This document shows positions 2,096 through 20,000 of a stretch of DNA of 64,000 bases, piece by piece (position 1 is the stretch's first letter; every line of letters begins with the position of its first letter). The position numbers and the translations under genes are program-made. Source of the stretch: an uncultured Thermodesulfobacteriota bacterium (GTDB lineage: Bacteria > Desulfobacterota > WTBG01 > CAIYCZ01 > CAIRTM01); assembly GCA_964621615.1 (NCBI GenBank), contig CAZUMW010000001.1:28464-92463 (forward strand), written 5' to 3'. The notes under the pieces were generated by a model. That model did not search any database. It saw only the letters and a program-made list of their open reading frames with translations, and was not told where the DNA came from.

Positions 2096-5000
2096 ATGTT
2101 TGTGGCAATTGTGTCAAGAAAAAGAGGCAAACGGATTCTTAAAACCCTGTCCGTGCTTGTCTGCTTGAGCTGTTTTATGCAGTTCAGCGGGCTGGTTAAT
2201 CTTGCCGCAGCCGCAAAAATCGACCGCAACACCCTTAATCTGAAAAAACAACTTCCCGAACCGCCAACGCTGAAACCGCCGAAACGCTCCCCGCTGGGCG
2301 AAAAAATAATGCGGTGTACTGTGATGCTGATGCCTGCGGCGGTAAAAGAATACGTGTACAAGATCGAGTCCATCGAACAGCAGCTCGACCTGCTGGAGCA
2401 GAAGCTTGAAAGCGGTGAAGACATCAATATCGATTACCGCATTGTGCTTGCCAAACTCGCCGGTTTGAAATCGCTAAGAAAAGAAGTGCAGCGTAATTTC
2501 CGTATCAGAAGCCGGCGCCTTAAAGAGCGTCTTGCAAAAAAAGAGATGCCGGTTGTGCGGAATGCTCTTGATGCGCTTCAAAAACAGCGCCGGGAATTCC
2601 GTGAAGCAGCAGCGCCGGTTTTCGAAACACTTGAAGCATTCGGGATCGCCGATGCGGTTGACCGGGTAAAGATAAACCGGCTGCGACGGCTTGTAAAGCG
2701 TCTGAAGGTTTTTAAACGGCGGCTTCCCCGCAGCCACGACAATCCCCTTCCCTGGCGAAGCGTTGAGCGAAATCAGGTCAAGCCCGAAACTGAAAGTTCT
2801 GTTACTCCCGCCTATATGCGATCTTCTAAAAACAGGTATGCAGCGCGGATTACAAGAAAACCGGCTGGTTCAAAAAGCCTTTCTGCTGCGGCGACCGGCG
2901 CGCCGATGCCCGATGACCTTTCAGAAACACCGGATGTTGTCATAACCCGGCAGATGCGAGATATTGTTGAGCGGCTCGGACACTCCCCGGCCCGAATCTA
3001 TGAGTGGGTTAAAAACAATATCCAATCCGAATTCTACCACGGCTCTTTGCGCGGCTCCGCGGGCACCCTTGCCAAACGCGCCGGTAACGATACCGATACC
3101 TGCTCGCTGCTGATAGCGCTTCTTCGGGCAGCCGGTGTGCCGTGCCGCTACGTGCAGGGCACGGTGGAGATACCGATGCAGCGCGCAAAAGCACTTACCG
3201 GTATCGAGCATGAGCCCCATGTGGGCCGGTATTTTGCCAACGCAGGCATTCCCGTCTGGAACACCGGCACCGGCAGGATACGCTTTGAGCACACCTGGGT
3301 TGAAGCCTGGGTTGACTATATGCCCTACGGCGGTGCAAAAGCCGGGACCGGTGACACCTGGGTGCCGCTTTCCCCCTGGTACAAAGACTATGAAAACACC
3401 CCCGGCACCGACCTTGCCGGCCTGACAGGATTTGACCGTGAAATGTTTATCAACGATTATATGCAGACCGTGCGTACCGATGACCCGGCTGATGCATACA
3501 AAATGTATTTTGACAATTGGTTCAGAGAAAACGGGCCGGGCCGGAACTGGCAGGAAGGGCTGGGCAGCCGCAGCCTGAAGCCCGAGCACTTCAGAAAGCT
3601 GCCGGCGACGGTCAATTTCGAGGTCATTTCCTTTCTGGGTGAACATGCAGCCCTGCCGCAGGATCAGCGCCACACGGTGACTATTGAAGTGCCGGAAGCG
3701 GGCATTGCATACACTATGAATATCATGGATTGTATCGGCAAAAAAATTTCTTTTGCCTATCTTCCTGCAGACAACGAAACCCGGGATCTGATTAATGAAA
3801 GGGGCGGTATTGACCATATACACCCCTTAAGTGTCAATCTGCTGCCCACGCTTCTTGTTGACGGGAAGCGGACGGCAGCGGGTAAAACGGTTAACGCAGG
3901 TTTTGAGCACGCGATGCGCGTTACGTTTTATGTGCCCGGTTTCGGAAGCGATGCGGTTATCTATGAAATGGTTTCGGGCGTCTATTATGTTCTCGGGATC
4001 GATCCGCAGCATGTAACAAACAAACTGCTTTCCGACAGGCTTTCTGGCAGGTGTGCTCAGGCTGAAGAACCCGTTTCTGCTTATGAGAATATGGATGAAA
4101 CGCCTGGTGATGCATTATATGTTTCCGTCATGAAGTATTTTCGCGACCGGAATACGGCCGATTACGACATTGCCGCCCTGTCAAAGGTCCGGGTTCTGAA
4201 GGAAACAACCTGTGCATTAATCGGCCGGGACCCACAGGTGATTGTGGACCGGTTCGGCCTGCCGGTCTCACTTGATAGGGGGCTCCTGTTTATTGATTCT
4301 CAGCGCGATTTTGTAACCCCGGTTTCGGTTGCCGGTGACAGCACGGCTGAAAAAGATTTTTTGTATATACGCGGGTATAACGCTTCATATAATGAGCATG
4401 ACATGTTTGAAGATTATGTGGGTATTGAGGCGGTTTCAACGGTTAAGCTGCTTCAGATTGCACGGCAGCACAATATGCCGGTGTATACTATCGATGCAGC
4501 TAACAGCGACAGTATCATCCCGCTTCTGGGACATGATGAAGCGGTGAAGCAGGTGATCCGGAATGCCGTACACAGAGGCCGCATTGTTACGGTACACAAA
4601 GATCCGGTGACGGTTAAGCAGTGGCGGGGAGTCGGGTATATAGAACGTGACCCGGTAACCCATGCCGCCGGGTATTACGGCATCGGCAGGAAAGGGTTTG
4701 CTTCAGCGGTTTTAACCGATATACAAAGCGAGGTGATCTGGCAGACAGGCAAAGTCGGAACGACCTGCGGCAACCCGGTCAGCATGGCAAGCGGCAATAA
4801 ACTGCAAAAGGAAACCGACCTTGTGCTGCCTGCTGCGGGAAAGGATGTTGATATAACGAGATACTACAACTCACGTGGAGACTGGGTCGGGCTGTTCGGG
4901 CACGGCTGGACCTTCACCTGTGATGAGCAGTTGCATGAGCGCTCTGCTGACGGCCAGGTTGTGTACCGGACAGCAGACGGCAGGCTGTATACCTATACCC

Positions 5001-8000
5001 CCGATGCAGACGGCACCTATACGGCTGAGCCGGGAAATTATGCGGTGCTGACAAAAACTGACGAAGGGTTTGTTATCCGCAAAAAGGGCGGCACACGGCA
5101 TCTGTTTAACCCGGCCGGGAAACTGATGCAGATCGTCGACCGGAACGGCAACTCACTGAGTTTCAGCTACAGCGGTGATGCCCTGACCGGCATTACCGAT
5201 GCTGCCGGGCGCAGGATAGACGTTGAGTGCCGGGATGGTAAAATAACACGGATCACTACTCCTGATGACGATAACACGTGGACCTACACCTATAACGGTG
5301 ATGATCTTGTCAAAGCCGTCAATAATGCAGGACAGACTGTATCCTATACATACCGGGACCATAACATGACCTCCCGAACCGGGCCCGGGGGCAAAACGGT
5401 TGTATATGAATATTACAGCAGCGGGAAAGTGCACTGCGAGCTTTTGCCCAACGGTGCCGAAATGGTGTTCAGCTACAACAGCCCGCTCAGGATAGCAACC
5501 ATGCGCGGCGGATGCTGCTCGGTCTCGCATCATTATTACAACCGGTACGGGCTGAATACGGGGCATATGGACGCTCTGGGCTATGAAGAGCTTGTTGAGT
5601 ATGATGACCAATTAAATGTGGTAAAAGTGATCGACAAAAAAGGCGGTGTGGTGAAAAACACCTATGATGAAAACGGCAACCTGCTGACAAAAACAGATCA
5701 GCTGAATCATACGACCGCCTACACCCATGAGCCGGTATATAACCAGGTCCTGACCGTGACCGACGGGGAAGGAAATACCACCACAAACACCTATGATGAC
5801 CGGGGGAATCTGCTTGCCACGGTCGATCCGGAAGGGGTGCGCATTGAACATGCATATTATGAAAACGGTCTGATTAAGACGACCGGCAGAAACGGTATTA
5901 TAAAAGCAGGCTTTACCTATTATGCGGATGGCACCCTTGCAACCGTAACGGATGGGGATAATAATACCGCGCGCTTTACCTATAACGCGCTGGGCAGGCT
6001 CACCGGAAAAACCGATGCAAACGGCAACACAACGGCATACGAGCTTGATAAGGCAGGCAATATTATCACGACGACCGATGCGGAAGGAAACCGGACCGTT
6101 TTTACCTACAACGAACAGAACCTTCGCACCAGCATGACCGATGGGCGCGGAAACACCACCACTTATGAATACAATGCGTATGGCAAACTCATAACAGTGA
6201 CCGATCCCATGGGTTTTGAGAAGAGCTATACCTATACGCCCATGTATGAGCTTGCATCCGAAACGGATAAAAACGGAAACACTACTTTCTATGTATATGA
6301 TGAGCTGCGCCGGGTTGTTGAAAAGCAGTATGCGGACGGCTCCGTTGAAACCTTCACCTACGATCCTGAAGGCAGGCTGATCAGCGCCGCGAACAGTCAG
6401 GGTACCACGGTGCAGGAATATGATGCTGCCGGGCGGCTGGTGAAAACGATCGATACCTTTGGCCAGGAAATTTCCTATACCTATTATGCCGACGGCAGCC
6501 GGAAGTCCATGACAGATCCGCAGGGCGGCGTGACACAATATGACTATTATGCAAACGGACAGATCAAATCGATTACCGGTCCCTCGGGAAAGACAACCGC
6601 CTATGCGTATACGGACGGGCTGCTTGAAAAGATCAGTAATCCAAACGGCACAGAAACCGTTTACGGCTATGATACTGCAGACCGGGTACACAGCCTTATC
6701 ACCCGCAAACAAAACGGCGAGGTGATTTCAGACATCCGGTATGAGTATGACGGTGTCGGCAATCGCCTGAGCATGACCGATACCGAAGGGGTTCACACCT
6801 ATGAATACGACATGCTCGATCAGGTCGTACGGGTCGACTATCCGGACGGTACGTTTACTGAGTATACCTATGATCCGGCATATAACCGGGCGACAATGAC
6901 AACCCCTGATGCAGCCGTTCTGTATGTGTATGACGATAACAACCGCCTGATAGAGGCCGGTGATGTAACCTTCAGCTATGATGCAAACGGCAACCAGATC
7001 AGCAGGCTGGAGGACGGGGAGGTGACCGCCTACCGGTTTGATGCAAAGAATCAGCTCGCAGGAATCTCCTTCAGCAGCGGAACTGAAAATACATTTGCCT
7101 ATAATGCCTTCGGGCAGAGGATCACCCGGAAGGACGGCTCCGCTATCATGCATTATCTGTATGACGGCAGGCAGGTGCTCATGCAGACAAACGGACAGGG
7201 CGTAATAAGCAGCGCATTTGTGAACGGATCCGGGTTAATCGGACCGCTTTATAAAAAGAACGCAAGGGATGAATACACCTGGTATGTCAGGGATGCCCTG
7301 GGCACTGCAACCCATCTGACCGATGAGGCAGGTGACATTGCTGCCTCATACCGGTATGATATATTCGGCGCGGTGCGAAGCTCAACGGTTATTGATGACC
7401 GGGGAATCAGGAATCAATATACGGGAAAAGAGCTTGACGATGAATCGGGCCTCATGTATTTCGGAGCGAGATATTATAACCCGGAGATCGGCCGGTTTGT
7501 TTCTGCTGATACCTACACCTGGGGGCCGGATGATGAGAGGGGGATGAACAGTCGCGGACAGGATCACATTTTGACATATGTTGGTGCTACTCAAACATCG
7601 CAATTAAACCTTTATGTTTATACAGCCAACAATCCTGTCAAACAGATTGATCCAGACGGACATCTAGCGGGCCTTGCTGCAATAGTTGCGTTGATTATGC
7701 TCAGTTTAGTAGCTTCTTCATTGATGGTAATTGCTAGAACTTTTACGGGTACTATAGGAAATAATGCAGCGGAAGTTTTAAGCGGAATGGTTGCTGATTT
7801 CATGACAGCGTACGGTTTGCTTGGTGCGCTTCCTGGGATAGCAACTGCTACTTTGACTTCTTTGTTGGTAAATTTTGTTACTACCCTATGGACAGAGCTT
7901 TATCTTAACCGCACAATTAGAGCAGTAAACAAATTTTACAGTGCTATTGACAGTTTGTTAGCATATTATGAATCTCCGCGTGTACAATGTCCAATTTTTC

Positions 8001-8005
8001 ATTAG
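2096..8005 (+). CDS. Rhs/YD-repeat polymorphic toxin (1969 aa) with N-terminal signal-like segment and a transglutaminase-like cysteine-protease domain; C-terminal hydrophobic toxin tip
   Basis: AGGA-like RBS before ATG. The transglutaminase-like Cys-His core is CSLLIALLRAAGVPCRYVQG ... EHTWVEAWVD (nt ~3080-3330). Dozens of YD repeats (YTYDxxGNL, nt ~4900-7200). Rhs core motif RYYNPEIGRFVSADTY (nt 7471-7518), then DPDGHLAGL (nt ~7648). The last ~110 aa are hydrophobic and Gly/Ala-rich. GC drops sharply from ~7560 to the stop. Confidence 0.85.
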   Translation: MFVAIVSRKRGKRILKTLSVLVCLSCFMQFSGLVNLAAAAKIDRNTLNLKKQLPEPPTLKPPKRSPLGEKIMRCTVMLMPAAVKEYVYKIESIEQQLDLLEQKLESGEDINIDYRIVLAKLAGLKSLRKEVQRNFRIRSRRLKERLAKKEMPVVRNALDALQKQRREFREAAAPVFETLEAFGIADAVDRVKINRLRRLVKRLKVFKRRLPRSHDNPLPWRSVERNQVKPETESSVTPAYMRSSKNRYAARITRKPAGSKSLSAAATGAPMPDDLSETPDVVITRQMRDIVERLGHSPARIYEWVKNNIQSEFYHGSLRGSAGTLAKRAGNDTDTCSLLIALLRAAGVPCRYVQGTVEIPMQRAKALTGIEHEPHVGRYFANAGIPVWNTGTGRIRFEHTWVEAWVDYMPYGGAKAGTGDTWVPLSPWYKDYENTPGTDLAGLTGFDREMFINDYMQTVRTDDPADAYKMYFDNWFRENGPGRNWQEGLGSRSLKPEHFRKLPATVNFEVISFLGEHAALPQDQRHTVTIEVPEAGIAYTMNIMDCIGKKISFAYLPADNETRDLINERGGIDHIHPLSVNLLPTLLVDGKRTAAGKTVNAGFEHAMRVTFYVPGFGSDAVIYEMVSGVYYVLGIDPQHVTNKLLSDRLSGRCAQAEEPVSAYENMDETPGDALYVSVMKYFRDRNTADYDIAALSKVRVLKETTCALIGRDPQVIVDRFGLPVSLDRGLLFIDSQRDFVTPVSVAGDSTAEKDFLYIRGYNASYNEHDMFEDYVGIEAVSTVKLLQIARQHNMPVYTIDAANSDSIIPLLGHDEAVKQVIRNAVHRGRIVTVHKDPVTVKQWRGVGYIERDPVTHAAGYYGIGRKGFASAVLTDIQSEVIWQTGKVGTTCGNPVSMASGNKLQKETDLVLPAAGKDVDITRYYNSRGDWVGLFGHGWTFTCDEQLHERSADGQVVYRTADGRLYTYTPDADGTYTAEPGNYAVLTKTDEGFVIRKKGGTRHLFNPAGKLMQIVDRNGNSLSFSYSGDALTGITDAAGRRIDVECRDGKITRITTPDDDNTWTYTYNGDDLVKAVNNAGQTVSYTYRDHNMTSRTGPGGKTVVYEYYSSGKVHCELLPNGAEMVFSYNSPLRIATMRGGCCSVSHHYYNRYGLNTGHMDALGYEELVEYDDQLNVVKVIDKKGGVVKNTYDENGNLLTKTDQLNHTTAYTHEPVYNQVLTVTDGEGNTTTNTYDDRGNLLATVDPEGVRIEHAYYENGLIKTTGRNGIIKAGFTYYADGTLATVTDGDNNTARFTYNALGRLTGKTDANGNTTAYELDKAGNIITTTDAEGNRTVFTYNEQNLRTSMTDGRGNTTTYEYNAYGKLITVTDPMGFEKSYTYTPMYELASETDKNGNTTFYVYDELRRVVEKQYADGSVETFTYDPEGRLISAANSQGTTVQEYDAAGRLVKTIDTFGQEISYTYYADGSRKSMTDPQGGVTQYDYYANGQIKSITGPSGKTTAYAYTDGLLEKISNPNGTETVYGYDTADRVHSLITRKQNGEVISDIRYEYDGVGNRLSMTDTEGVHTYEYDMLDQVVRVDYPDGTFTEYTYDPAYNRATMTTPDAAVLYVYDDNNRLIEAGDVTFSYDANGNQISRLEDGEVTAYRFDAKNQLAGISFSSGTENTFAYNAFGQRITRKDGSAIMHYLYDGRQVLMQTNGQGVISSAFVNGSGLIGPLYKKNARDEYTWYVRDALGTATHLTDEAGDIAASYRYDIFGAVRSSTVIDDRGIRNQYTGKELDDESGLMYFGARYYNPEIGRFVSADTYTWGPDDERGMNSRGQDHILTYVGATQTSQLNLYVYTANNPVKQIDPDGHLAGLAAIVALIMLSLVASSLMVIARTFTGTIGNNAAEVLSGMVADFMTAYGLLGALPGIATATLTSLLVNFVTTLWTELYLNRTIRAVNKFYSAIDSLLAYYESPRVQCPIFH

Positions 8006-8203
8006 ATCAAAAGTTTTTTTAGAGTCGTGTCAAAAAAATTCAACAACTTTCATCCCGGGCGAATAAAGTGAGATTTGGAATTTATGTTCTGTTAGATTTT
8101 CCATGGATTCCGCATTAATAGAGGGGTGAAAGAATAGATAGTTTTTTGATGCTATGCCGACAAGTGTAAATCAATATCGTACATCATTTAGGGAGTTTTG
8201 AAA

Positions 8204-8578
8204 ATGCCGTTACTGGACATATTGTTAGCCATTTTTGGTTTTGGTTTAATGGTTTTATGTATGCTGTTCCCAGAAAAAGTTAAATCATTTTATTCCACTA
8301 ATAATGAGAAAGAAATAAAACCGCAATTAAAAAAAATTACAATAGGTTTATTTGTTCTTATTATCGATTTCGGAATATGGTCTATATGTTCTTTGGTAGT
8401 TGGAATAAATATTACTGATGAAGGAAAAATATTATTTAATTTTATAACAATAATTATTGTTCCTTTAATATCTTTCATCTTTATTTTCTTTGGGCTTATT
8501 GATTTGATTAAACACTTATTATCAACAAAAAAAACGAAGCAAAAGGAAGCAAGGAATAAACCAGGGGTTACATCTTAA
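8204..8578 (+). CDS. small multi-pass membrane protein, candidate Rhs immunity protein
   Basis: Immediately downstream of the Rhs toxin tip. AGGGAG RBS 8 nt before ATG 8204. 124 aa with about 4 predicted TM helices. Very AT-rich like the toxin tip. No recognisable family. Confidence 0.5.
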   Translation: MPLLDILLAIFGFGLMVLCMLFPEKVKSFYSTNNEKEIKPQLKKITIGLFVLIIDFGIWSICSLVVGINITDEGKILFNFITIIIVPLISFIFIFFGLIDLIKHLLSTKKTKQKEARNKPGVTS

Positions 8579-9660
8579 ATAATAACTATTGCATACAAAA
8601 AGAAGCGACAATAATGTCTCAAAGACACACGATTCAATCAGATTGTATTGTGGGGAGAGATCAATGACACGTGCATTGCGTGTTGAGTATGAAGGGGCGT
8701 TCTATCATATTCTTAATCGAGGCAACGGGGGAGAGAAAGTACTCAAACAAAAGCGGGACAAGGAAAGATTTCTTCAGTATGCAGGAGAAGCCGCTGAACG
8801 ATACAGCTTTGTCATTCACACCTATTGCCTGATGGATAACCATTTTCATGTGGTTGTAGAGACCCGTGAAGCAAATCTGAGTACAGCAATGCAGTGGCTC
8901 AATGTGAGCTATGCGACATGGTATAACAAAAAGCACAGCCGAAGCGGTCATGTATTTCAGGGAAGATTCAAATCATATTTGATAGATGCGGATGAATATT
9001 TGGCAGCGGTATCCCGTTACATACATCTCAATCCGGTTCGGGCGGGGATGGCAGAAAATCCTGCGGTTTATCAATGGAGCAGTTACGGGTGTTTTGTGGA
9101 ACAACGGGAAAAGCCCGGATGTCTGGAGACCCGGAAAGTGCTTTCATATTTCAGCCCAAAGACTTCTGAGGCAATAAAGGAATATAAGAGGTTTGTTGAA
9201 AATATAGAGATAAACGCGCTTGAAAATCCCAGCAAACAAGCTGTTGAGGGATTTATAATCGGGGGAGCTGGTTTTGCAGACCGGGTGCGGCAACAAATGG
9301 TTACAGCAAATCACGAACAGGAAAAAGAGATTCCCCAGCTTAAAAGGCTTAAGCCCAAACCGGCACTTGAAAGCATAATAGAAGCAGCGTCTTATGTGTT
9401 TTGCTGCAGGAGAGAAGATATTGTAAGAAGCGGAAAGAAACATAACCTGGCACGTGATATAGCGATATATATTGCACGAACGTCAACCGGTTTGTCATGC
9501 AGAGAACTCGGGGAGCATTTTGGCGGAATAACGGGTGCCGGGATTACTATGAAGTACAGGCAGATAAAAAATCTGGCGGAAAAGGAAAAAGGTATCAGGG
9601 AAAACATAGCGAATATCAGCAGCCGTATATTTAATATTTAAGATGTGACCCTTGACTATG
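8563..9660 (+). mobile_element. IS200/IS605-like (Y1 HuH transposase + DnaA_C-like HTH) element delimited by 16-bp inverted repeats GGGTTACATCTTAAAT / ATTTAAGATGTGACCC
   Basis: The left repeat at 8563-8578 overlaps the stop of the immunity ORF. The right inverted copy is at ~9639-9656 (15/16 match). Single transposase ORF inside. Low GC. Confidence 0.5.
8664..9641 (+). CDS. IS200-like Y1 (HuH) transposase / RAYT-type protein fused to DnaA C-terminal-like HTH domain
   Basis: HuH motif DNHFHVVVE and Tyr motif RYIHLNPV (Y1 transposase fold). The C-terminal ARDIAIYIARTSTGLSCRELGEHFG resembles the DnaA_C HTH. GGGGAGAGA RBS upstream of ATG 8664. Confidence 0.7.
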   Translation: MTRALRVEYEGAFYHILNRGNGGEKVLKQKRDKERFLQYAGEAAERYSFVIHTYCLMDNHFHVVVETREANLSTAMQWLNVSYATWYNKKHSRSGHVFQGRFKSYLIDADEYLAAVSRYIHLNPVRAGMAENPAVYQWSSYGCFVEQREKPGCLETRKVLSYFSPKTSEAIKEYKRFVENIEINALENPSKQAVEGFIIGGAGFADRVRQQMVTANHEQEKEIPQLKRLKPKPALESIIEAASYVFCCRREDIVRSGKKHNLARDIAIYIARTSTGLSCRELGEHFGGITGAGITMKYRQIKNLAEKEKGIRENIANISSRIFNI

Positions 9661-9801
9661 CTCAAAAAATATTTTTTGGCAAATTTCATTGTGTTTGCTG
9701 TTTTTGTTGTTACCCTGGGTGCAGCAGTTGTACTGATTATTATAGGTCTATTTGATTTGATTCGCCATTGGTTTAAGAAAAGGAAAAGGGTCACATCTTA
9801 A
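9658..9801 (+). CDS. 47-aa hydrophobic mini-ORF, orphan immunity-like fragment (C-terminus homologous to 8204..8578 product)
   Basis: Translation MLKKYFLANFIVFAVFVVTLGAAVVLIIIGLFDLIRHWFKKRKRVTS. The C-terminus (GLFDLIRHW...VTS*) parallels GLIDLIKHLL...GVTS* of the upstream protein. The nucleotide 3' end, including GGGTCACATCTTAAAT, is duplicated. No clear RBS. Below the ORF-track length cutoff. Confidence 0.35.
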   Translation: MLKKYFLANFIVFAVFVVTLGAAVVLIIIGLFDLIRHWFKKRKRVTS

Positions 9802-9886
9802 ATATTAAATATTTCACACAAAGAGAAGCACAAATGATGTCTCATAGGAACACGATTCAGGCAGATTGTATTTTGGGGAACGGTTA

Positions 9887-10131
9887 ATGACACGTGCGTT
9901 GCGGGTTGAATATGAAGGAGTGTTCTATCATATTCTTAATCGAGGCAACGGGGAGAAAAAGCACTCAAACAAAAGCGGGACAAGGAAATATTTCTTCAGT
10001 ATGCAGGAGATGCTGCTGACCGTTACAGCCTTAACATTCATACCTATTGCCTGATGGACAACCATTTTCATCTGGTCATAGAAACCCGAGCAGCAAACCT
10101 GAGTGCGGCAATGCAGTGGCTGAATGTGAGC
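9887..10131 (+). pseudogene. truncated, frameshifted duplicate of the IS200-like transposase 5' end
   Basis: nt 9788-10131 are ~85-90% identical to 8563-8945, including leader and MTRALRVEYEG..YHILNRGNG. A 1-nt deletion (GGGGAGAGAAAG to GGGGAGAAAAAG) shifts the frame. Homology ends abruptly at ~10131. Confidence 0.6.
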
Positions 10132-10162
10132 TGTTTAATTGAAGTTGAGTAGGTTATGAATT

Positions 10163-12190
10163 GTGAAAGTTGAGTTCATGAATAGAAACCAGGCAGAAAA
10201 TGCTTTGTATCGTATTTTTGGTCACAGAGAATTTTACGATGAGCAGTGGCAGACTATCGAAAGGCTCTTTCGCGGTGAGCGTTTGTTGATGATTGAGCGA
10301 ACCGGTTACGGGAAATCCCTTTGTTATCAATTCCCGGCAACGCAGTTTAAGTATACCACCGTTGTTTTTTCGCCGCTTATTGCATTAATGCGTGACCAGA
10401 TTGACTATCTGCAATCAAAAGATATTGCCGCAGAATGCATAAACAGCGAACAGACTCCTGAAGAAAACACCCGGATTATTGCCGAGGCAAAGCAGGGGAA
10501 GATAAAGATTCTCTATATTGCGCCTGAACGCCAGGAGAATCAGGAATGGATTGAAGCTGTTCAAAGCGGACAGATAAAAATATCAATGGCAGTTATTGAT
10601 GAAGCCCACTGTGTCTCTATGTGGGGACATGATTTTCGTCCCGCTTTTCGTCGGATCATAAGTCTTATAAAAATGCTTCCCCGCAATTTTCCTGTACTTG
10701 CCACAACCGCTACCGCAACAGATCGTGTTGCTCAAGACATTATAAAACAGATGGAAGGTCATGTTAGGCTGGTGCGCGGTGATCTCATGCGAAAGAATTT
10801 TCGTTTATCGGTTGTGACTTTTGATTCAGAAGATGCAAAATTTGCCTGGGTGGCTGAATTTCTACAAAAGCAATCTGCGGATGCAACGGGAATTATTTAT
10901 ACCGGCACCAGGGTCAATACGGAACTTTATTCCCGGTGGCTTGGGGCAAACGGTTTTTCCGTGGCAAGTTATAATGCCGGTCTTGATCCGGAATCACGTA
11001 AAGCCATAGAAGAAGGATTGCTCTTAAACAAATATAACTGTATTGTTTCTACAAATGCACTGGGCATGGGGATTGACAAATCAAATATTCGTTTTATCGT
11101 ACACACGCAGCTGCCGGCATCACTGATACATTATTATCAGGAAATCGGCCGGGCAGGCCGTGATGGACTGCCTGCACAAATAGCCTTATTATATAATCAG
11201 AAAGATAGAGAACTTCCTCGATCATTTATCGAAAAAAACCGACCTGACATTAAGCTGTACACAAGAGCTGTAGACGCATTACGCCGGGAGCCTCTGGGTG
11301 AATATGATTTAATGCGCAGAACAAACCTTACCCAGACCCAGATAAGAGTCATCAGAAGCGATCTCATTGATCAGGGTATAATAAATGAGGCTGCTTACGG
11401 GGGTAAAAAGAAATATGAATTGAAACACAATGCCCCGGCTTTAGATACCGAACCCTTCAAAAGACTCCGCGGTTTCAAAGAACAGGAGCTTCAAAAAATG
11501 ATCGACTATGCAGAAGCTGAAAAGGGCGGTATGAATATTTTGTGTGAGTATCTTGGTGATAATCCGGGTGCGGCAACTGACGGCTGTGAACGTTATACTT
11601 ATGCATTAAGTGAATCCTGGAGGAAAGCTATAGCTGCATTTCGAGACGATTATTTTCCGGAGTTGCCGGTCGAGACGAAAAACAGCATTCTTATTAATGG
11701 TGTTGCCGCTTCATATTATGGTGTTTCTAATGTTGGATCGGTAATACATCGTTGTAAATATGAAAATGGTGGTGATTACCCCGGGCATTTAATAAAGCAG
11801 ACGCTAAGGGCCTATAGGGCTCGACTGAGCCAAACCGCATTTGATTTAGTTCTATATGTGCCGCCGGCGGTATCCGGTGATTTGGTTAAGAATTTTTCTG
11901 TTGCTGTAGCTAAGTCATTGGGGCTGCATTTGTCACATGGTCTTGTTAAATTAAGAGAGACTAAACAGCAGAAAATTTTTCAAAACGGCGTTTTGAAACG
12001 TGATAATGTAAAAGATGCCTTTGATTATGCCGGTCCGGAAGATATTGAGGGGAAAAGTATTTTATTAATTGATGATATTTTTGACAGCGGAGCAACAATA
12101 AAAGAGATAGGACGAATGTTAAAGAAAAAAGGAACTGCAAAAGCCGCTCCGTTGGCAATTGCCAGGACGGTTGGGGGTGATTTGTCGTGA
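10163..12190 (+). CDS. RecQ-family DNA helicase fused to a C-terminal ComF/ComFC-type phosphoribosyltransferase (PRTase) domain
   Basis: Walker A TGYGKS. DEAH box VIDEAHCVSMWGHDFRPAF. RecQ motif YYQEIGRAGRDG. No RQC/HRDC. The last ~190 aa carry the ComF signature (LRETKQQKIFQNGVLKRDNVKDAF; PRPP-binding SILLIDDIFDSGATIKE...LAIAR). GTG at 10163 or ATG at 10178. Low GC. Confidence 0.8.
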   Translation: MKVEFMNRNQAENALYRIFGHREFYDEQWQTIERLFRGERLLMIERTGYGKSLCYQFPATQFKYTTVVFSPLIALMRDQIDYLQSKDIAAECINSEQTPEENTRIIAEAKQGKIKILYIAPERQENQEWIEAVQSGQIKISMAVIDEAHCVSMWGHDFRPAFRRIISLIKMLPRNFPVLATTATATDRVAQDIIKQMEGHVRLVRGDLMRKNFRLSVVTFDSEDAKFAWVAEFLQKQSADATGIIYTGTRVNTELYSRWLGANGFSVASYNAGLDPESRKAIEEGLLLNKYNCIVSTNALGMGIDKSNIRFIVHTQLPASLIHYYQEIGRAGRDGLPAQIALLYNQKDRELPRSFIEKNRPDIKLYTRAVDALRREPLGEYDLMRRTNLTQTQIRVIRSDLIDQGIINEAAYGGKKKYELKHNAPALDTEPFKRLRGFKEQELQKMIDYAEAEKGGMNILCEYLGDNPGAATDGCERYTYALSESWRKAIAAFRDDYFPELPVETKNSILINGVAASYYGVSNVGSVIHRCKYENGGDYPGHLIKQTLRAYRARLSQTAFDLVLYVPPAVSGDLVKNFSVAVAKSLGLHLSHGLVKLRETKQQKIFQNGVLKRDNVKDAFDYAGPEDIEGKSILLIDDIFDSGATIKEIGRMLKKKGTAKAAPLAIARTVGGDLS

Positions 12191-13362
12191 TTAATACGCA
12201 CGAGTACTCATATTGGATTGCATTGAGTCATTTACCGAAATGGCGTATCGAGCGTATCAATATGCTTATTGTTGAGATCCTTCATAATAAAAATATGCAG
12301 CTCGCAGAGTTTTTTGAGCTGAGTCCGCCATCCCGGGAAAAAGAGTTTCATTTGGATCATAAGGAAAGTGCAGATATACAAAAGGCCGGGGAATATTTGT
12401 CCAATTACTCTTTCCTTGCTGAACAATTGCTTGTACAAGGCTTTGATATAATTCCTATCAGCTCCCCTGACTATTCTCCAGTGCTGAAAAACAATCTTAA
12501 ACTCAAATATTCTCCGCCCCTGCTTTATGTCAAGGGGAACAGGCGGCTGCTTTACGAGCCATCAGCCGCAATAGTCGGCTGTCGAAAAGCATCTGACATT
12601 TCTTTGCACTTTACCCGTACGATTGCTGAGAAATGTGCCCATGAAGAAAAAGTAGTGGTGAGCGGATTTGCCAAAGGTATTGACCGGCAGGCGCTTGATT
12701 CGGTCCTTGCATATCATGGCAAAAGTATTATTGTTCTGCCGCAGGGGATTATGACATTTGGCAGTGGTATAAAAAAATATTATAAGCAGCTTGTTGACGG
12801 AGATGTGCTGGTTTTAAGCACTTTTTATCCGAAAGCCCCATGGAGCGTAGGCCTTGCTATGGCGCGAAATGTATATATTTACGGTTTAGCCGAAGAAATA
12901 TTTGTGGCCGAATCGGATAATAAAGGGGGCACGTGGTCCGGTGTTCTCGATGGGTTAAAAAAGGGGCGGACAATATTTGTTCGCAAGGCGGACATACAGG
13001 AAAAGAATACAAACAATATTTTGATAGAAAAGGGAGCCCGGGGAGTAGACTTGCAGGGAAATATAATTTCTTTAGAAAAAGAAGGTATGCACCAGCATAT
13101 CATTGCAGACAATGTTGCCGCCTACGGTCTGCAAGCAGAGAATAGTGATTCATTTGAAAGTAAAGTTATACAGTATTTAAATAAGACGAAAGAGCCAAGA
13201 ACCTCCAGGCAGATTAAGGAAGCCATTAACGTAGAGGAACCTGCACAAAAGATAACGCAGAAATTAAAAAAAATAACCGGTATCAATTATACCAAACATA
13301 AAAACAAAATCTTTTTTTTCACTGAACGAACAAATCCATTAAAACAGCAGGAGCTGTTCTGA
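12187..13362 (+). CDS. dprA: DprA/Smf-family DNA-processing protein (SLOG/Rossmann fold) with C-terminal winged-helix-like extension
   Basis: The GTG start overlaps the upstream TGA (GTGA), indicating translational coupling. DprA core PLLYVKGNRRLL...AIVGCRKAS...VVVSGFAKGIDRQA...IIVLPQGI...VYIYGLAEEIFVAESDNKGGTWSG. Low GC. Confidence 0.75.
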   Translation: MINTHEYSYWIALSHLPKWRIERINMLIVEILHNKNMQLAEFFELSPPSREKEFHLDHKESADIQKAGEYLSNYSFLAEQLLVQGFDIIPISSPDYSPVLKNNLKLKYSPPLLYVKGNRRLLYEPSAAIVGCRKASDISLHFTRTIAEKCAHEEKVVVSGFAKGIDRQALDSVLAYHGKSIIVLPQGIMTFGSGIKKYYKQLVDGDVLVLSTFYPKAPWSVGLAMARNVYIYGLAEEIFVAESDNKGGTWSGVLDGLKKGRTIFVRKADIQEKNTNNILIEKGARGVDLQGNIISLEKEGMHQHIIADNVAAYGLQAENSDSFESKVIQYLNKTKEPRTSRQIKEAINVEEPAQKITQKLKKITGINYTKHKNKIFFFTERTNPLKQQELF

Positions 13363-13414
13363 TAGTGATATTTGGCAGCACGCGGGCGGTGGCACATCTT
13401 AAATAAAAAAATTT

Positions 13415-13681
13415 ATGGATGCACTTATTCGTTTTGCAACGTCTGTTTTGTATGTTTTGGCCGGCTGGGGGACAAAGCAATTTTTCAGTGGGAATATAGA
13501 TAAGTATAAAATTCTATATATAGCAGTGCCGATATTATTGGCAATATATTTTTTGGCTATAGAAAAAATGTATGAGATACAAAAGCAAAACAGAAAGATA
13601 ATTGCCAAATCCAGGAATGCCGTGATTCAATTTTTGGCATTAGCAACAATATTTTATTTTTTTGGTCTAATATTTGTGTAA
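13415..13681 (+). CDS. small hypothetical membrane protein (88 aa, 3 TM-like segments)
   Basis: AT-rich ORF at the island edge. No family recognised. Weak RBS. Confidence 0.3.
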   Translation: MDALIRFATSVLYVLAGWGTKQFFSGNIDKYKILYIAVPILLAIYFLAIEKMYEIQKQNRKIIAKSRNAVIQFLALATIFYFFGLIFV

Positions 13682-13684
13682 ATA

Positions 13685-13786
13685 AGCCCGGCAGACGTGG
13701 CGGCCAATTACTTTCTGCAGGGCGGGGATCGGTATTTATTCACCTGAGGACAGCATCCTTTGTGTGCATGAATACGGCTTTTTTTA
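13685..13786 (+). repeat. copy 2 of ~105-nt intergenic repeat family with 3' hairpin + T-run
   Basis: First ~70 nt identical to copy 3 and ~90% to copy 1. Ends GCATGAATACGGCTTTTTTT. Confidence 0.65.
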
Positions 13787-13884
13787 TGAGATGAGCACAG
13801 GGGGGCAAAAAACCGTTATTTAACCTGTGTGTCCTTGTGGTTTTATAAAATGGACGGCGGTTACATGAGTCCCCGGAGCAGTAT

Positions 13885-15057
13885 ATGGATTATGGAAACG
13901 AATTTATAGCAAAAGCAAAGCGCCTTATTTTAGTCACTATTTGTACTGTGCTTGCAGGGATCGGTCTGGTTCTGTACGGGTCCTGGTTCGGCAACCAGCT
14001 GCTGGGCATCCGCGCGCTTTGTACAGACACTGCCGGCAATGTTTATATCATAGCAAATTATACGCTCTATAAGCTGAACCGGTCGGGTGAAATACTGCTG
14101 CAATTCGGCGGAAAGGGCAGCGGGCCGGGCCGGTTTGGACAGGGGATCCCGCTTGATATGTGGGTTGATGAAAAGGGCACTATGTATGTTGCAGACATTC
14201 TTAACTATCGCATTCAAAAATTTGGTTCAAACGGTTTGTTTATCGCCCAATTCGGAAAGGCGGGAACAGAGCCGGGCGCCCTTGGAGATGCTTTTGAGCT
14301 GGCGACGGACAGTGAGGGCTGTCTCTACACGGCTGAGAGCACAAACAACCGAATCCAGAAATTCAGCCCCAGCGGAGAGCTGCTGTGGCATATAGGGAGC
14401 AGTCAGTCCCGTGATTTTAACGCCCCGCATGACCCTTTTGTTGGGCCGGACGGCACTGTGTATATCTGCGACTTTCGAAAGCAGCGAATCCAGAGCTTTT
14501 CCGGCGACGGCGCCTTCATTGCAGAGTATCCCACACGCCCGCCTTCAGATAACAGCACGCTCGGCAGCCAGAAAGATAAAATCAGCGCGTTTTTGTATAT
14601 GCTGCGCTTTCCGCAGCGCATAACCCGGGACAGCAGCGGCAATTTTTATGTGCTCAATTATAATTCAGGCCTGAGTATAGGTGCAATAAACAAATATGAT
14701 TCCGGCTTTAATCTGATCGATATTTTCGATTTATCCGATAAGGGAATACCGTTTATCACGTATCCGGCTGAAATAGCCTGCACCGCCGATGACACCATAC
14801 TGCTTATTATGCATGGCAGCATGAGCATAGAGCAGATAGCAGCAGACGGCACCAGTCTCGGTTCTTTCGGCACCGAGCAGCTTATAGCCGAACTTGATCT
14901 GCTTGGCAAACGAAAGGACCGTTTTCAGCAATTACAGCTGGCAGGAAAGCTGCTGGCGCTCATCGGGCTTGTCATGTCGCTTTTTATTTACCGGCGGTAT
15001 AAAAAAGTGCGTGATAAGGATCGAATCGCCGGCTCTCTGGTTACAAGAATCGATTAG
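13885..15057 (+). CDS. NHL-repeat (six-bladed beta-propeller) protein with N- and C-terminal TM anchors
   Basis: Repeated NYRIQKF / NNRIQKF / KQRIQSF NHL motifs. Hydrophobic N-terminal and C-terminal segments. Confidence 0.7.
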   Translation: MDYGNEFIAKAKRLILVTICTVLAGIGLVLYGSWFGNQLLGIRALCTDTAGNVYIIANYTLYKLNRSGEILLQFGGKGSGPGRFGQGIPLDMWVDEKGTMYVADILNYRIQKFGSNGLFIAQFGKAGTEPGALGDAFELATDSEGCLYTAESTNNRIQKFSPSGELLWHIGSSQSRDFNAPHDPFVGPDGTVYICDFRKQRIQSFSGDGAFIAEYPTRPPSDNSTLGSQKDKISAFLYMLRFPQRITRDSSGNFYVLNYNSGLSIGAINKYDSGFNLIDIFDLSDKGIPFITYPAEIACTADDTILLIMHGSMSIEQIAADGTSLGSFGTEQLIAELDLLGKRKDRFQQLQLAGKLLALIGLVMSLFIYRRYKKVRDKDRIAGSLVTRID

Positions 15058-15069
15058 CTGCGAGAATCC

Positions 15070-15939
15070 ATGAATACCGTTAAAGCGTTTTTTGCCGTAA
15101 ACAGATCTCCGCTCATACAATATATGGCAAGGCGCAGGAGCAACAAAATCCTGAAGCGGCTTGCCCCGCATGTGAAGCGCCTTATGGCCCCGGATGAAGA
15201 GCCGCAGGCCCATTGCCTGCTTGTCCGGTTTGCCTATGATCTGATGTGGGTCGATATGCTGAACCCGCTTTTTGCGATGCTGGCACATATCATCAGAAGC
15301 TGTACGATTGAAAAAAAGCTGGTTCTCGCAACAGATAAAAGGCTGCTGATTTTTAAGCTGACCGTGCGAAGCCGCTATGCCCGGGAGGCATATGAGATTT
15401 TATATTCCTCAATTAAAACGGTTACTCTGTGGGCGCCGGTGCTTTTGCCCTCACAAAAGCTCAGCCTGAAACTGAAGGATAACACCGGCTATGTTCTTGA
15501 AACGGTCAAGCAGTATCCGCTCGACCGCATTTATGCTGCGGTTAGCAAGCGGATTGAAAGCGCCACGGCAGACGAGCCGCAGTATAATGCTGCGTATCAC
15601 CGGCGGTGCGCGGCCTGCGGTGCAGTTTATAATCGATCAGACGCCGCCTGTCCGCTGTGCGGGTTTAAAAACCGCAGTCCGGCAATTGCCGGGATACTGT
15701 CGTTTGTCATTCCCGGCCTGGGGCAGCTCTATCTTGGCCGTGCGGTTCTTGGAGCAGTTTTTATGGCCTATCATGTTTTAATTTTTTGCTTTGTGTACGT
15801 GTATGTTATCCAGTGGATCGGCCGGTGGCATGAAATAGCTTACCTGGTTTTAATTCAGATGGTGATACATATGATTAACAGCGCAGTAAATGCATGCATA
15901 CATACCCATGAATCAAACGTACTGGGAGGCGCACGATGA
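15070..15939 (+). CDS. hypothetical protein with zinc-ribbon (CAACGAVYNRSDAACPLCG) and C-terminal TM2-like membrane domain
   Basis: CxxC...CxxC pair. FVIPGLGQLYLGRAVLGAVFM resembles the TM2 domain motif. Confidence 0.45.
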   Translation: MNTVKAFFAVNRSPLIQYMARRRSNKILKRLAPHVKRLMAPDEEPQAHCLLVRFAYDLMWVDMLNPLFAMLAHIIRSCTIEKKLVLATDKRLLIFKLTVRSRYAREAYEILYSSIKTVTLWAPVLLPSQKLSLKLKDNTGYVLETVKQYPLDRIYAAVSKRIESATADEPQYNAAYHRRCAACGAVYNRSDAACPLCGFKNRSPAIAGILSFVIPGLGQLYLGRAVLGAVFMAYHVLIFCFVYVYVIQWIGRWHEIAYLVLIQMVIHMINSAVNACIHTHESNVLGGAR

Positions 15940-16886
15940 AATTAAAATACTCTATAATGCTTGCTCTCGTTCTTGTTGCTAACAGCTGCAGCCGGACTTC
16001 GCCGGAAGCGGTGTTTGAGTCAATGACGGCAGCAGAAAAAAAGGCCGGCGTCTGCATGGTGGAGCTTCTGTCTAACCATCAGTTTAAGCTGATTGAGCAA
16101 TGCATACGACGTGCTGTGGCGGCGTATGAAAAAGATTGTCAAAAGGAGCGACAGCTGGGGCTTTTGTGGGAAGCATTTCAAAGAAAGGATCCTTTCCTTG
16201 AGCCTCATTTTAATGCATATGTTGCCGCTTTTCCGGATTCCTATGTCGCGCATATGGCGCGGGGAGTATATTATATCGGCATAGCCTGGTTCAAACGGGG
16301 ATCGGCGCCGATAAGCCGGACCTCACAAAAGCAGCTCGAAGGGCTGAAAAAGTATCTTCGCCGTGCCGAGCAGGACCTGCTCAAAGTAAAACAGATGCAG
16401 CCCGGCCTGCCGCATGTGTATGCAGAATTGATAATTATCAAGATGCCCCGGGTAAAGAACAAAGAGCGCATAAAAGAAATAGCGCAAGAGGGGCTCAGGC
16501 ACAGCCCGGTCAGCGTTTCCATACGGCTCAGCTATTTAACGTCGCTGCTGCCGCGCTGGAACGGCTCGATTGAGGAGATGGAGGCGGTTGTCAAAAAAAC
16601 AAAAAAACATATTAAAGACAATCCGGCACTCAGTGTTGTGTGCGGGCGGGTTCTTGCTGAAAAAGGCGATACATATTTCTTTAATCGCGAATACAGCAAA
16701 GCCATTCAATTTTATAATGAGGCGCTTAAGCACGGCGAAACCGCGTTTGTCCTGTGCCAGAAATCGCGGGCCCTTCTGTTTAATGGCGAAAGGGAGGGGG
16801 CGTTAACATGTATTGAGCGGGCGATTGAGCTGCGGCCCTCCTATCAGCAGCTTCATGAGATGAAGATGGGCCTGACATCATCATAA
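15936..16886 (+). CDS. TPR/Sel1-like repeat lipoprotein
   Basis: Lipoprotein signal with lipobox LVANSC. TPR-like helical repeats near the C-terminus. The start overlaps the upstream stop (ATGA). Confidence 0.55.
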   Translation: MKLKYSIMLALVLVANSCSRTSPEAVFESMTAAEKKAGVCMVELLSNHQFKLIEQCIRRAVAAYEKDCQKERQLGLLWEAFQRKDPFLEPHFNAYVAAFPDSYVAHMARGVYYIGIAWFKRGSAPISRTSQKQLEGLKKYLRRAEQDLLKVKQMQPGLPHVYAELIIIKMPRVKNKERIKEIAQEGLRHSPVSVSIRLSYLTSLLPRWNGSIEEMEAVVKKTKKHIKDNPALSVVCGRVLAEKGDTYFFNREYSKAIQFYNEALKHGETAFVLCQKSRALLFNGEREGALTCIERAIELRPSYQQLHEMKMGLTSS

Positions 16887-17069: not shown

Positions 17070-20000
17070 ATGAAGCAGTTAATAAAGACGTGGTACGGTG
17101 TTTGGGGAGCGGTTATTATCTCTACAGTTCTGTTCACGGTGCAGGCACAGGCTCATGAGGCTGCCGTAGAAAGCGGGCTTCAGTGGCTTATAGACAGTCA
17201 GCATCCGGATAACGGCAGCTGGGGCACACTGCCGGAGCTTGATACCCCGGTTGTGCTCTCAGCCTTTCAAAAGCTCGGCGAAACGGGATATGCCTATGAC
17301 GAGGGCCTTTCCTTTCTGGAACAGACGCGGCCGGAGTGCATTGATTTTTTAAGCCGCAAAACGATCGCTTTGAGCGCTGCCGGGCGTGATGTTTCAGAAA
17401 GCCTTGAAAAAATTCTGGCGGCCCAGAATGAAGACGGCGGGTTTGGGTTTGCCCTGGGGTATTGCAGCTCTGTTATCGATTCCCTGATCGCAGCCCGCGC
17501 GCTGTCTGCTGCCGGAGTTGAGCAGCATGAAGTTATCGGCAGACTGGTATATTACATTACCGAATCGCAGAGCCAGGACAACGGCAGCTTTTCCTATGCC
17601 GCAGGCGGCCCGGAAAGCCTTGCAGTGACCTGCTGTGCAGCAATCGTGCTGAGTGACTTTTCACCCCGGTATGATGTTTCAGAACACCTGCGCAGTGCCC
17701 TTCATTTTATTTCAGGCTGTAAAAACCCTGACGGCGGGTACGGTGAGTCCGGAAGCACGGTGATCGAAACCGCGCTTGCGGTTCGGGCTCTGACTGCGGC
17801 AGGCGGCAGTGCACAGGACATTCTTTCCGGGCGGCGGTATCTGACTGCAATGCAGAATCAAAGCAGCGGAGCCTGGAATGATGCGGTTTATGAGACAGCA
17901 CTTGCCCTGCGGGCGCTTAATAATACCGATACAGTTGACCGGGCAAACCTGCAGGTACACCCCGAGGGAATCACCATGGAACCGCAGTACCCGGCCCAGG
18001 GGCAGACGGTGACCGTAACCGGTGAGGTGCGAAACACCGGCTCATCAGCTGCAGAGAATGTAGGGGTTTCTTTCTATCTCGGCGATCCGGAAAACGGCGG
18101 GGTTCATATAGACAGTGCTACCGTTTCAACCATTCTTGCCGGCGACAGCGAAGAGGTTCAGATTACGTTCACCCTTACCGGGGTAGTCGGCGAGCGGGAT
18201 ATGTATGTTGTCGCCGATCCGGATAACAGTATTCCCGAGATAAGCGAACATGATAATACAGCATCAAAAGGGTTTGTTAGCGGTACCATGCCTGATATTG
18301 CGGTGGTTGAGATTACACGGGATGTCGACACCCCTGCGGAAAACGAGCCGTTTACCATAAGCGCCGGGGTGCTCAACCTTGGTGAAAGCGATGCCGGGCC
18401 GGTTACGGTGTTTCTTTATGACGGCGATCCCGGGCAGGAGGATCCGCTGCTTAAGATCAGGCTTGACAACGTGTGCGGCGGCTGCAGCGGACAGGCTGAT
18501 TTTACGCTGCAGCTTTCAGCGGGTACACACACTCTGTATATTACCGCCTATCCGGATGATCCGAACGTAGAGGAGCAATCGCTTTCAAATAACCGGAGAT
18601 CATATACCGCTAATATTGATGGAGCCGTAATCCAGGGTATCGATCTTGCCGTCAGCCCGGCTGACATAGATTTTTCACCGCCCTATCCGCGCGACAACGA
18701 AACCGTAACCATTACCGCAACAGTGCGAAATAGCGGCAGTGAAACGGTAACCGATGCTTCTGTGGAACTGTTCCGTGCAGGTTCAGACGGAACCGGTGTA
18801 CTTATCGGGGAGCCATTTAGGGGCGTTACCGTCCCCGGAGCCGGTGCTGCCGACATTGTTATGCATGATGTGTCATTTGAAGCTGGACTTTTTGATATAT
18901 ATGTGAAGACTGACCCAGACAATACCTATGAGGAACACAGCGAGAATAACAATATAGCCGCAAAACAGCTGAGAGTATTAAGCTCAGCGGATGAGCTTGA
19001 TCTTTCAGTTGGCGAAATGTCATTTGACACTGCAACGCCGTTAGCAGGCGATCCGGTCCGGGTGAGCTGCCGGATAACCAATAACAGCACGGTTCCGCTT
19101 GAAGGGGTGAGCTTCGGCATATACGCAGGAGATCCCCGCTCGGGCGGTGCGCTTCTGATCCCCGAAGTACAGACGGTTTCAGCGCTCGGGATCCAAAGCA
19201 GTATATATATCGAAGGGACCATCGATACGGCCGGACGCGGCGGAGAGCAGCACATCTATATTATGGCGGATGTTGATAATGATATAGCCGAGCGCAACGA
19301 AGAAAACAATCTCGCATCCGCAGCGCTTGTGGTAACCGGTGAATCTGCTCCCGATCTAATCGCAACGGATGCAGATATTATAGTGGAGCCTGCAGACCCG
19401 GCTGTCGGTGACAACATGACCGTCACCTGCCGGATTACAAACGCAGGTTCTGTCGCCGTTTCAGATGATTTTCAGGTCAATGTTTACGACGGCCCGCCAT
19501 CGGAAGACAACCCGCCATTTGCCGGGCTGCCGGTAACCGGCGGTATGCCGGCAAACGGATACTATCTTGACATAACCCTGCCGATTCCTGCAGCACAGCT
19601 TGCCGGAACGCATACCATATATGTGGTGGCAGATGACGGCAATGCCGTCAGTGAGTTTAATGAATATAACAACACCGCAACAAAAGAGGTTACTGTTCAG
19701 GCAGCTGACCTGAGCATTGGTTCTGAGGATATCTCTTTCAGCCTGCCGGCCCCCATGGAAAACGAACTGTTTACCCTTACCGCTGTTGTGCACAATATCG
19801 GAATGCTCAATGTGGAGAGCATGCGGATCGCTGTATATACCGGCGACAACGACACAGCAAATCTCATCGGCGAACAACAGGCAGGGCCGATCGGTGCAGG
19901 AGAAAGCGTGAGTGTTGAAGTGGAAAATCTCGCATTTGATGCTGCCGGCTCCTATAATCTGCAGGTGAAACTCGACCCCGACAACCTGATTGCTGAGGCA

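Follow-up and report, generated by a model that had tools for sequence, protein, structure and literature searches.

A predicted Sec-exported Rhs polymorphic toxin with a triad-depleted transglutaminase-like carrier module in an uncultured Thermodesulfobacteriota bacterium

The Gram-positive protein WapA combines a signal peptide with YD repeats and a polymorphic C-terminal toxin, is used in a contact-dependent manner without a type VI secretion system (T6SS), and has cell-wall-binding repeats at its N-terminus. In another Rhs toxin, Tse5, a short, hydrophobic C-terminal tail (Tse5-CT) is paired with a cognate immunity protein that is embedded in the membrane. The cage of Tse5, an Rhs protein of Pseudomonas aeruginosa, delivers an encapsulated pore-forming fragment that depolarizes the target cell, and its cleavage is Asp-dependent (PMC10684867, PMC9637101). 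Sec-dependent RHS polymorphic toxins with an inactive transglutaminase (TGase) domain in their N-terminal part have been described (PMC3482391, PMC3239186): in the passages that treat these proteins, Zhang et al. 2012 (Biol Direct 7:18; PMC3482391) report N-terminal TGase domains lacking at least one of the residues C, H and D, and Iyer et al. 2011 (NAR; PMC3239186) write of RHS deaminase toxins ‘associated with an inactive transglutaminase’. Here, we analyze a gene of this kind at positions 2096–8005 (+) of a 64,000-nucleotide stretch of contig CAZUMW010000001.1 (assembly GCA_964621615.1; hereafter the window), which encodes a 1,969-aa Rhs/YD-repeat protein with a predicted Sec leader and an N-terminal TGase-like carrier, as seen in the open reading frame (ORF) list, the translation, and Pfam and NCBIfam scans. 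We consider it fairly probable that the product is a polymorphic Rhs toxin, exported through Sec independently of a T6SS and mounted on a conserved carrier at its N-terminus, a full account that would include a binding module, cage cleavage, a membrane-active tail and immunity.

A preliminary description of the gene, made from the sequence, had called the TGase-like N-terminal module unusual and had offered surface attachment, processing or cross-linking as its possible roles. The architecture is of a known kind, because Zhang et al. and Iyer et al. describe inactive TGase domains together with RHS toxins. The first of the three guesses had precedent as well, given that a non-catalytic surface-anchoring role for inactive TGase domains is already proposed in passages of both papers (PMC3482391, PMC3239186).

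Active-site positions of the transglutaminase-like domain

The TGase-like domain is encoded at 2945–3415 (+). Pfam Transglut_core (PF01841) matches residues 299–427 (E 5.8e-12; 46.3 bits against a gathering cut-off of 23), and this match, the AlphaFold 2 (AF2) model and a PDB match confined to the TGase part all place it in the TGase/papain-like fold. As had been described, it lies well upstream of the YD shell, which starts at residue ~968, and both of the strings quoted in its favor, residues 336–355 (CSLLIALLRAAGVPCRYVQG) and 398–407 (EHTWVEAWVD), are present in the translation. By the refuting conditions named in the preliminary description, the fold assignment stands, given the significant Pfam match, but the catalytic reading of these strings is refuted, since the catalytic residues do not align. 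Active-site positions were read from single-sequence and profile alignments to 3isr. In both, the third position of the family motif G-N-A-F-D-T-A falls opposite the catalytic Cys of 3isr (G-V-C-R-D-F-A). This position is D332 in the present protein, and not C336, which follows four residues (one turn) later on the helix. The triad Asp, placed in the family motif W-V-P-L-D, is replaced by S426, and H399 is the only triad residue that is kept.

The same loss is seen in the relatives of the protein, for which 62 homologs were collected in a first-pass word-index search with the first 890 aa as query. Across this family the canonical Cys column holds A, D, S or G, with A as the consensus. The Rhs-fused clade uniformly reads GND.DT[A/V/S]SL and WxP[LV][S/A]P, and has Ser or Ala at the Asp position throughout. 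Because D332 and S426 occupy the canonical places of Cys and Asp in the present protein, Cys-His-Asp catalysis by the domain, be it cross-linking or proteolytic processing, is very unlikely. An active Cys-His-Asp enzyme was rejected on these residue-level alignments.

A different kind of activity would be one through a shifted nucleophile, either C336 or, in some members, a Cys two residues before the canonical position, by which the domain would cross-link or process proteins. Such an enzyme would suit the near-invariance of H399 and the surrounding EHxWxEAW motif, the location of C336 on the same helix in this protein, and the Cys that about 12 of the 62 relatives have at position 330. However, 60 of the 62 family members have Ala or Ser in the C336 column, and the eight closest relatives (P0001, P0183–P0189; 37–52% identity) all have A, V or S there. 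A residue this variable among close relatives is not the family nucleophile. Neither the canonical Cys column, with its A, D, S or G family-wide, nor the replacement of Asp by Ser or Ala in the entire Rhs-fused clade fits an active enzyme, and the passages of Zhang et al. 2012 (PMC3482391) on such domains conclude likewise. We therefore regard a shifted nucleophile as highly improbable. The residues that are invariant in the family (N331, D334, R344, Y352, W401, W422 and K430) point to a conserved surface other than a thiol active site.

The carrier module and its giant neighbor

The TGase domain is part of a conserved stretch of some 870 aa at the N-terminus. The 62 homologs align along the lead, the TGase domain and the ~430 aa behind it, up to a sharp conserved junction (W-x-G-x-GYI-x-x-DP-x-TGAGAY-x-ISGG), past which the sequences are unrelated. 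In the present protein, the lead that follows the signal peptide (2216–2944, +; aa 41–283) is basic and probably helical from its composition (22% K+R), and has H-D-N-P-L-P-W-R at residues 214–221, the counterpart of LDPNxLPxR in the family alignment. Behind the TGase domain, the rest of the carrier module (3416–4711, +; aa 441–872) consists of β-sandwich and helical subdomains according to the AF2 model and, as the alignment of the junction shows, ends in the motif W-x-G-x-GYI-x-x-DP. A module of ~590 aa is confidently modeled by AF2. Some 430 aa of it have no solved relative, and no PDB match was found for the module beyond the TGase part (aa 441–872).

Typical family members are ~1000–1150 aa long and mostly non-Rhs, with hypervariable tails of 60–350 aa. 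The tail domains include NlpC/P60, CHAP, NucA/NucB DNase, DUF6310 and Cys/Pro-rich domains, together with many transmembrane (TM)-rich tails. An exhaustive HMMER search with the non-TGase part only (aa 441–872) gave 2,741, 1,426 and 228 clusters at E ≤ 1e-3, 1e-10 and 1e-30, respectively, and when one genome per species was scanned, at least 257 species encoded the module. Its hosts belong to the Desulfobacterota, Nitrospirota, Acidobacteriota, Myxococcota, Gammaproteobacteria, Chloroflexota, Planctomycetota, Bacillota and Actinomycetota, with one Methanosarcinaceae metagenome-assembled genome (MAG). Fusion to Rhs is recurrent (7 of 79 loci and the closest clusters, P0183–P0189). Downstream orphan ORFs repeat the end of the module in their first 40–200 residues and continue with new tails of 100–135 aa (loci L043, L063, L044, L056 and L076), and such orphan cassettes are the classic signature of polymorphic-toxin loci. 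Because hypervariable tails occur in well over 1,000 clusters across phyla, with orphan cassettes downstream in some loci, the module is a carrier of polymorphic effectors, and in the present gene an Rhs cage is inserted between the carrier and the toxin.

Several members of the family deserve a separate description. Arrays of orphan fragments, each with a different tail, are found at 11079–14678 in L043, 11197–13990 in L063 and 5487–10408 in L044; they were seen in Moraxella macacae, an Alcanivorax MAG and a gammaproteobacterial MAG. On a Methanosarcinaceae MAG contig (L045, 7773–17792), a protein of >3339 aa opens with the same TGase module, and this archaeal copy reflects either transfer of the carrier between domains of life or a mistake in binning. 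Thermoanaerobaculia-like members (P0025, P0026, P0028 and P0036) have a recurrent type of tail made of a TM segment and a Cys/Pro-rich domain of ~70 aa, with an HWH motif and a conserved IPPPxPVPCPP at the C-terminus, for which the precomputed annotation shows PF01841 only. A conserved 85-aa ORF lies directly upstream of the NlpC/P60-tailed P0005 (L001 7634–7891, L002 72–329), and a YARHG-domain protein lies downstream of it.

For the 79 loci, ORFs lying up to 5 kb from the module gene were clustered. One recurrent neighbor, a large or giant protein of 300 to >2,300 aa, is present in 39 loci, and a giant/toroid neighbor is found in 28 of the 41 loci that have flanks of 4 kb or more on each side. 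The neighbor is on the same strand as the module gene in all 39 cases and at most 400 bp away in 28 of them, upstream in 30 loci and downstream in nine. A toroid hidden Markov model matches neighbors in 29 of the 79 loci. These proteins open with a TED/prenyltransferase-like α–α toroid, followed by CARDB, MG2/bMG3, CarboxypepD_reg, and NHL or FG-GAP propellers. The two TM-tailed, Rhs-fused relatives L083 and L084 have them too: in L083, a 646-aa toroid protein begins 330 bp past the Rhs gene, and in L084 toroid proteins are encoded 10 bp upstream and 4 bp downstream of it. The linkage of module and toroid genes is correlative, yet strong and phylum-spanning. Literature searches on a TGase/CARDB or toroid toxin system, or on a link between module and toroid, returned nothing relevant.

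The window encodes a candidate partner of the same type, a giant secreted protein of 3,027 aa (17070–26153, +) that matches the neighbors in L011, L075 and L013 by blastp (E 1e-97 to 5e-67). Pfam identifies an N-terminal TED/prenyltransferase-like toroid, eight CARDB domains, PKD and an ice-binding-like adhesive C-terminus, and no CGEQ thioester motif was found in the TED-like region. Upstream of this gene, including 13885–16886 (+), are NHL-propeller, bPH-like and TPR genes.

The dead TGase module might alternatively face the target cell as a receptor-binding or entry module (for example, toward peptidoglycan stem peptides or a prey envelope protein), with the giant neighbor functionally unrelated. 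A ligand common to many targets would suit the presence of the module in diderms, in monoderms and in an archaeon, and the giant gene is 9 kb off in the window. Against that, a neighbor that keeps to the same strand in 39 of 39 loci and within 400 bp in 28 of 39, in distant phyla, is hard to explain without a functional link, and we judge a target-facing module with an unrelated neighbor to be quite unlikely.

The Rhs cage, the hydrophobic tail and the low-GC island

Past the carrier, the N-terminal edge of the Rhs region is formed by DUF6531 (4769–4996, +; aa 892–967; PF20148, E 3e-20). The YD-repeat shell (4997–7354, +; aa ~968–1753) contains 17 stretches matched by RHS_repeat (PF05593, E 1.8e-73), and is also recognized by YD_repeat_2x and TIGR01643 (E 1e-60) and by homology to solved Rhs cages. 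It is closed by the Rhs-associated core with the predicted autoproteolysis site (7355–7663, +; aa 1754–1856; Rhs_assc_core, TIGR03696, E 1e-16). These matches bear out the original identification as an Rhs/YD-repeat protein. The Rhs part is homologous to the solved cages 8h8a, 8qja, 7q97 and 8cp6 (Tse5), and also to teneurin-like proteins and TcB/TcC. Both Asp motifs of the core are retained, GRFVSAD at residues 1799–1805 and NNPVKQIDPDGH ending at residue 1856. When the core is aligned to solved structures of Rhs, TcC and SGS1 proteins, GRFVSAD corresponds to GRFxQxDP and NNPVKQIDPDGH to the DPxG boundary (DPDG), and the last residue of the boundary motif is H in place of L (DPDGH). The best PDB match of the end of the core (window positions 7646–7720; aa 1851–1875) is the mosquito salivary gland surface protein SGS1/SGS4 (8fjp, 9on3), in which hydrophobic helices directly follow the DPDG motif, as in this protein.

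The remaining 113 aa form the C-terminal tail (7664–8005, +; aa 1857–1969), a putative toxin from its hydropathy and its drop in GC content. Hydropathy indicates one strong TM-like segment and a second, weaker hydrophobic stretch. The GC content, ~0.50–0.53 in the Rhs core, falls to 0.43, 0.36 and then 0.30; the drop starts exactly at the junction between core and toxin and continues through the next ORF, which is typical of exchanged toxin–immunity cassettes. This next ORF (8198–8578, +), a candidate immunity gene from the ORF list, hydropathy and the GC profile, begins 190 bp past the Rhs gene and encodes 126 aa with three TM-like segments, and its low GC content (0.30–0.31) matches that of the tail. 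A search of 5.8 billion proteins gave no homologs of the tail at E ≤ 1e-3, and the tail has no Pfam match; for the 126-aa ORF, Pfam matches are sub-threshold only and no homologs were detected. The tails of P0183–P0189 differ from each other and from the tail in the window. TM-rich tails after the DPxG motif are also found in P0184, P0186, P0189, L035, L041 and L048, and matches between the window tail and other TM-rich tails are compositional only. From position, composition and analogy with known systems, we take the tail for a probable membrane-active toxin and the product of 8198–8578 for its candidate immunity protein.

This assignment has to be weighed against one in which the hydrophobic tail is no antibacterial toxin but serves to anchor or insert a surface Rhs protein in the membrane, an adhesin or receptor-like protein similar to teneurins and mosquito SGS1, and the 126-aa ORF is unrelated cargo of the adjacent mobile island. 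An anchor would fit the best match of the core end, SGS1 (8fjp), whose DPDGQ also precedes hydrophobic helices, as well as the lack of a homolog of the tail and the physical joining of the 126-aa ORF to a duplicated Y1-transposase-like unit. It would also fit the TM-tailed Rhs genes of L083 and L084, which have no TM ORF behind them. On the other hand, the tail sits behind a conserved self-cleavage motif, the usual site of encapsulated Rhs toxins, and the GC content falls exactly at the junction, as in exchanged toxin cassettes. The same carrier family has clear toxins (DNase, NlpC/P60) as well as orphan cassettes, and Tse5 is a precedent for an encapsulated pore-forming tail. An anchor with unrelated cargo is unlikely in our view, and we keep the tentative assignment as putative toxin and candidate immunity protein.

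The low-GC island as a whole covers ~7600–13800 (0.30–0.47 compared with 0.52–0.57 in the flanks), starting at the toxin tail. The segment 8565–8910, which comprises the 3′ end of the 126-aa TM ORF and the 5′ part of a Y1 IS200-like transposase/DnaA-HTH gene, is duplicated at 9788–10132 with 85–88% identity, leaving a 49-aa TM fragment (9652–9801) and a truncated transposase copy. Inverted repeats of 27–28 nt are located at 8562–8589, 9627–9654 and 9786–9812. The island also holds a fusion of a RecQ-like DEAD helicase with a ComF-type phosphoribosyltransferase (10163–12190), which overlaps a DprA gene (12187–13362).

Export, proposed mechanism and comparison with known systems

The ORF at 2096–8005 is uninterrupted, with an AAGGA-type ribosome-binding site upstream and a terminator-like hairpin farther up. 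Its first 40 residues are a predicted Sec signal peptide (2096–2215, +) with a hydropathy peak at aa 13–37. The RKRGKR n-region, the hydrophobic core and the AAA/K boundary fit a Sec signal, and similar leaders are present in the closest relatives (P0183–P0189), in agreement with the signal first noted for this protein. A lipoprotein signal was rejected on reading the sequence, given that C23 and C26 both lack a lipobox. No Pfam or NCBIfam match to T6SS, PAAR, prePAAR or VgrG was found in the protein, and none among the genes of the 64-kb window. T6SS delivery was rejected on these grounds, which cover the protein and the 64-kb window. No type V or type VII secretion system (T5SS, T7SS) genes were found among the window genes either. 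The remainder of the window is chromosomal housekeeping (PolA, AsnB, CstA, POR, a GT9 heptosyltransferase and others). By its PolA, the organism falls close to uncultured ‘Deltaproteobacteria’-type MAGs, with identities of about 63–66%. Because the GT9 heptosyltransferase suggests lipopolysaccharide, the organism appears to be diderm.

In the mechanism that we propose, Sec would export the toxin, and the dead TGase module would act as a binding module that keeps it at the cell surface via a peptide ligand, for which the co-encoded giant surface protein with its TED/prenyltransferase-like toroid start is the most attractive candidate. The Rhs cage would cleave itself after DPDGH and enclose the 113-aa hydrophobic tail. 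Upon contact with a target, the tail would enter the membrane and dissipate the membrane potential, as shown for Tse5-CT, and the three-TM protein encoded at 8198–8578 would shield the producer.

Several points weigh against this account. Neither the tail nor the 126-aa ORF has detectable homologs, and their roles as toxin and immunity protein were assigned from position, composition and analogy. The toxin/immunity assignment is weakened further because in L083 and L084, the two closest TM-tailed relatives, the Rhs gene is not followed by any obvious small TM ORF. The tie to the toroid protein is one of synteny, and the homolog of the partner in the window lies 9 kb from the Rhs gene, past the low-GC island. 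The signal peptide was assigned by eye and from hydropathy. Finally, the account has no explanation for how a Sec-exported protein of >200 kDa would cross the outer membrane of a diderm.

As a single gene, the present finding changes little, since it is a further case of a described architecture in which the idea of an enzymatic N-terminal cross-linker was wrong. The family is of wider interest. Polymorphic toxins that are exported by Sec (the ‘T2SS-class’, after the type II secretion system) are the least understood class as to how the toxin is displayed and handed over to the target. With its sharp recombination junction, orphan cassettes and strongly syntenic partner, the family offers handles on T6SS-independent delivery in environmental anaerobes, methanotrophs and myxobacteria. 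Tentatively, and with more reserve than for the single protein, we suggest that the ~870-aa dead-TGase region and the toroid giant may form a widespread two-component surface toxin-delivery system, dependent on Sec and not on T5SS, T6SS or T7SS, in which the module would dock the toxin on the scaffold and Rhs cages would be one of several payloads.

Compared with known systems, the protein resembles WapA-type toxins in its predicted signal peptide, YD repeats, polymorphic tail, apparent independence of T6SS and proposed contact-dependent use, but a TGase-fold module replaces the cell-wall-binding repeats and the host is apparently diderm. With the T6SS Rhs effectors (RhsA, Tse5/RhsP1 and Tre23; 8h8a, 8qja, 7q97 and 8cp6) it shares DUF6531, the YD shell, the two-Asp core, the predicted DPxG cleavage site and a putative toxin after the motif. 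It differs from them in having a predicted Sec leader and a TGase carrier in place of a PAAR, prePAAR or VgrG-binding N-terminus, DPDGH instead of DPxGL, and about 30 extra residues between the two Asp motifs. The proposed likeness to Tse5-CT is that of a toxin tail carried in an Rhs cage and set free by Asp-dependent cleavage, with which the hydropathy of the window tail would be consistent, whereas no sequence similarity was detected for the window tail and delivery would not be by T6SS.

The inactive-TGase RHS toxins of Zhang et al. and Iyer et al. are alike by description, with a signal peptide, a triad-depleted TGase fold, RHS repeats, a variable C-terminal toxin and Sec export. In the passages of Zhang et al. 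on these proteins, however, the TGase domain comes immediately behind the leader, whereas here a conserved basic lead of ~240 aa intervenes. Relative to the toxins as outlined in the two papers, the RHS repeats here begin only after ~450 aa more of module beyond the TGase domain, which itself is merely the first ~160 aa of a ~590-aa module without a solved relative. Most members of the present family lack RHS repeats, and the relevant passages of the two papers do not mention a tie to toroid-domain giant proteins. What is new beyond the architecture described in 2012 is a larger, widespread and unstudied carrier module, a non-Rhs majority with variable tails, and the toroid-protein neighbor.

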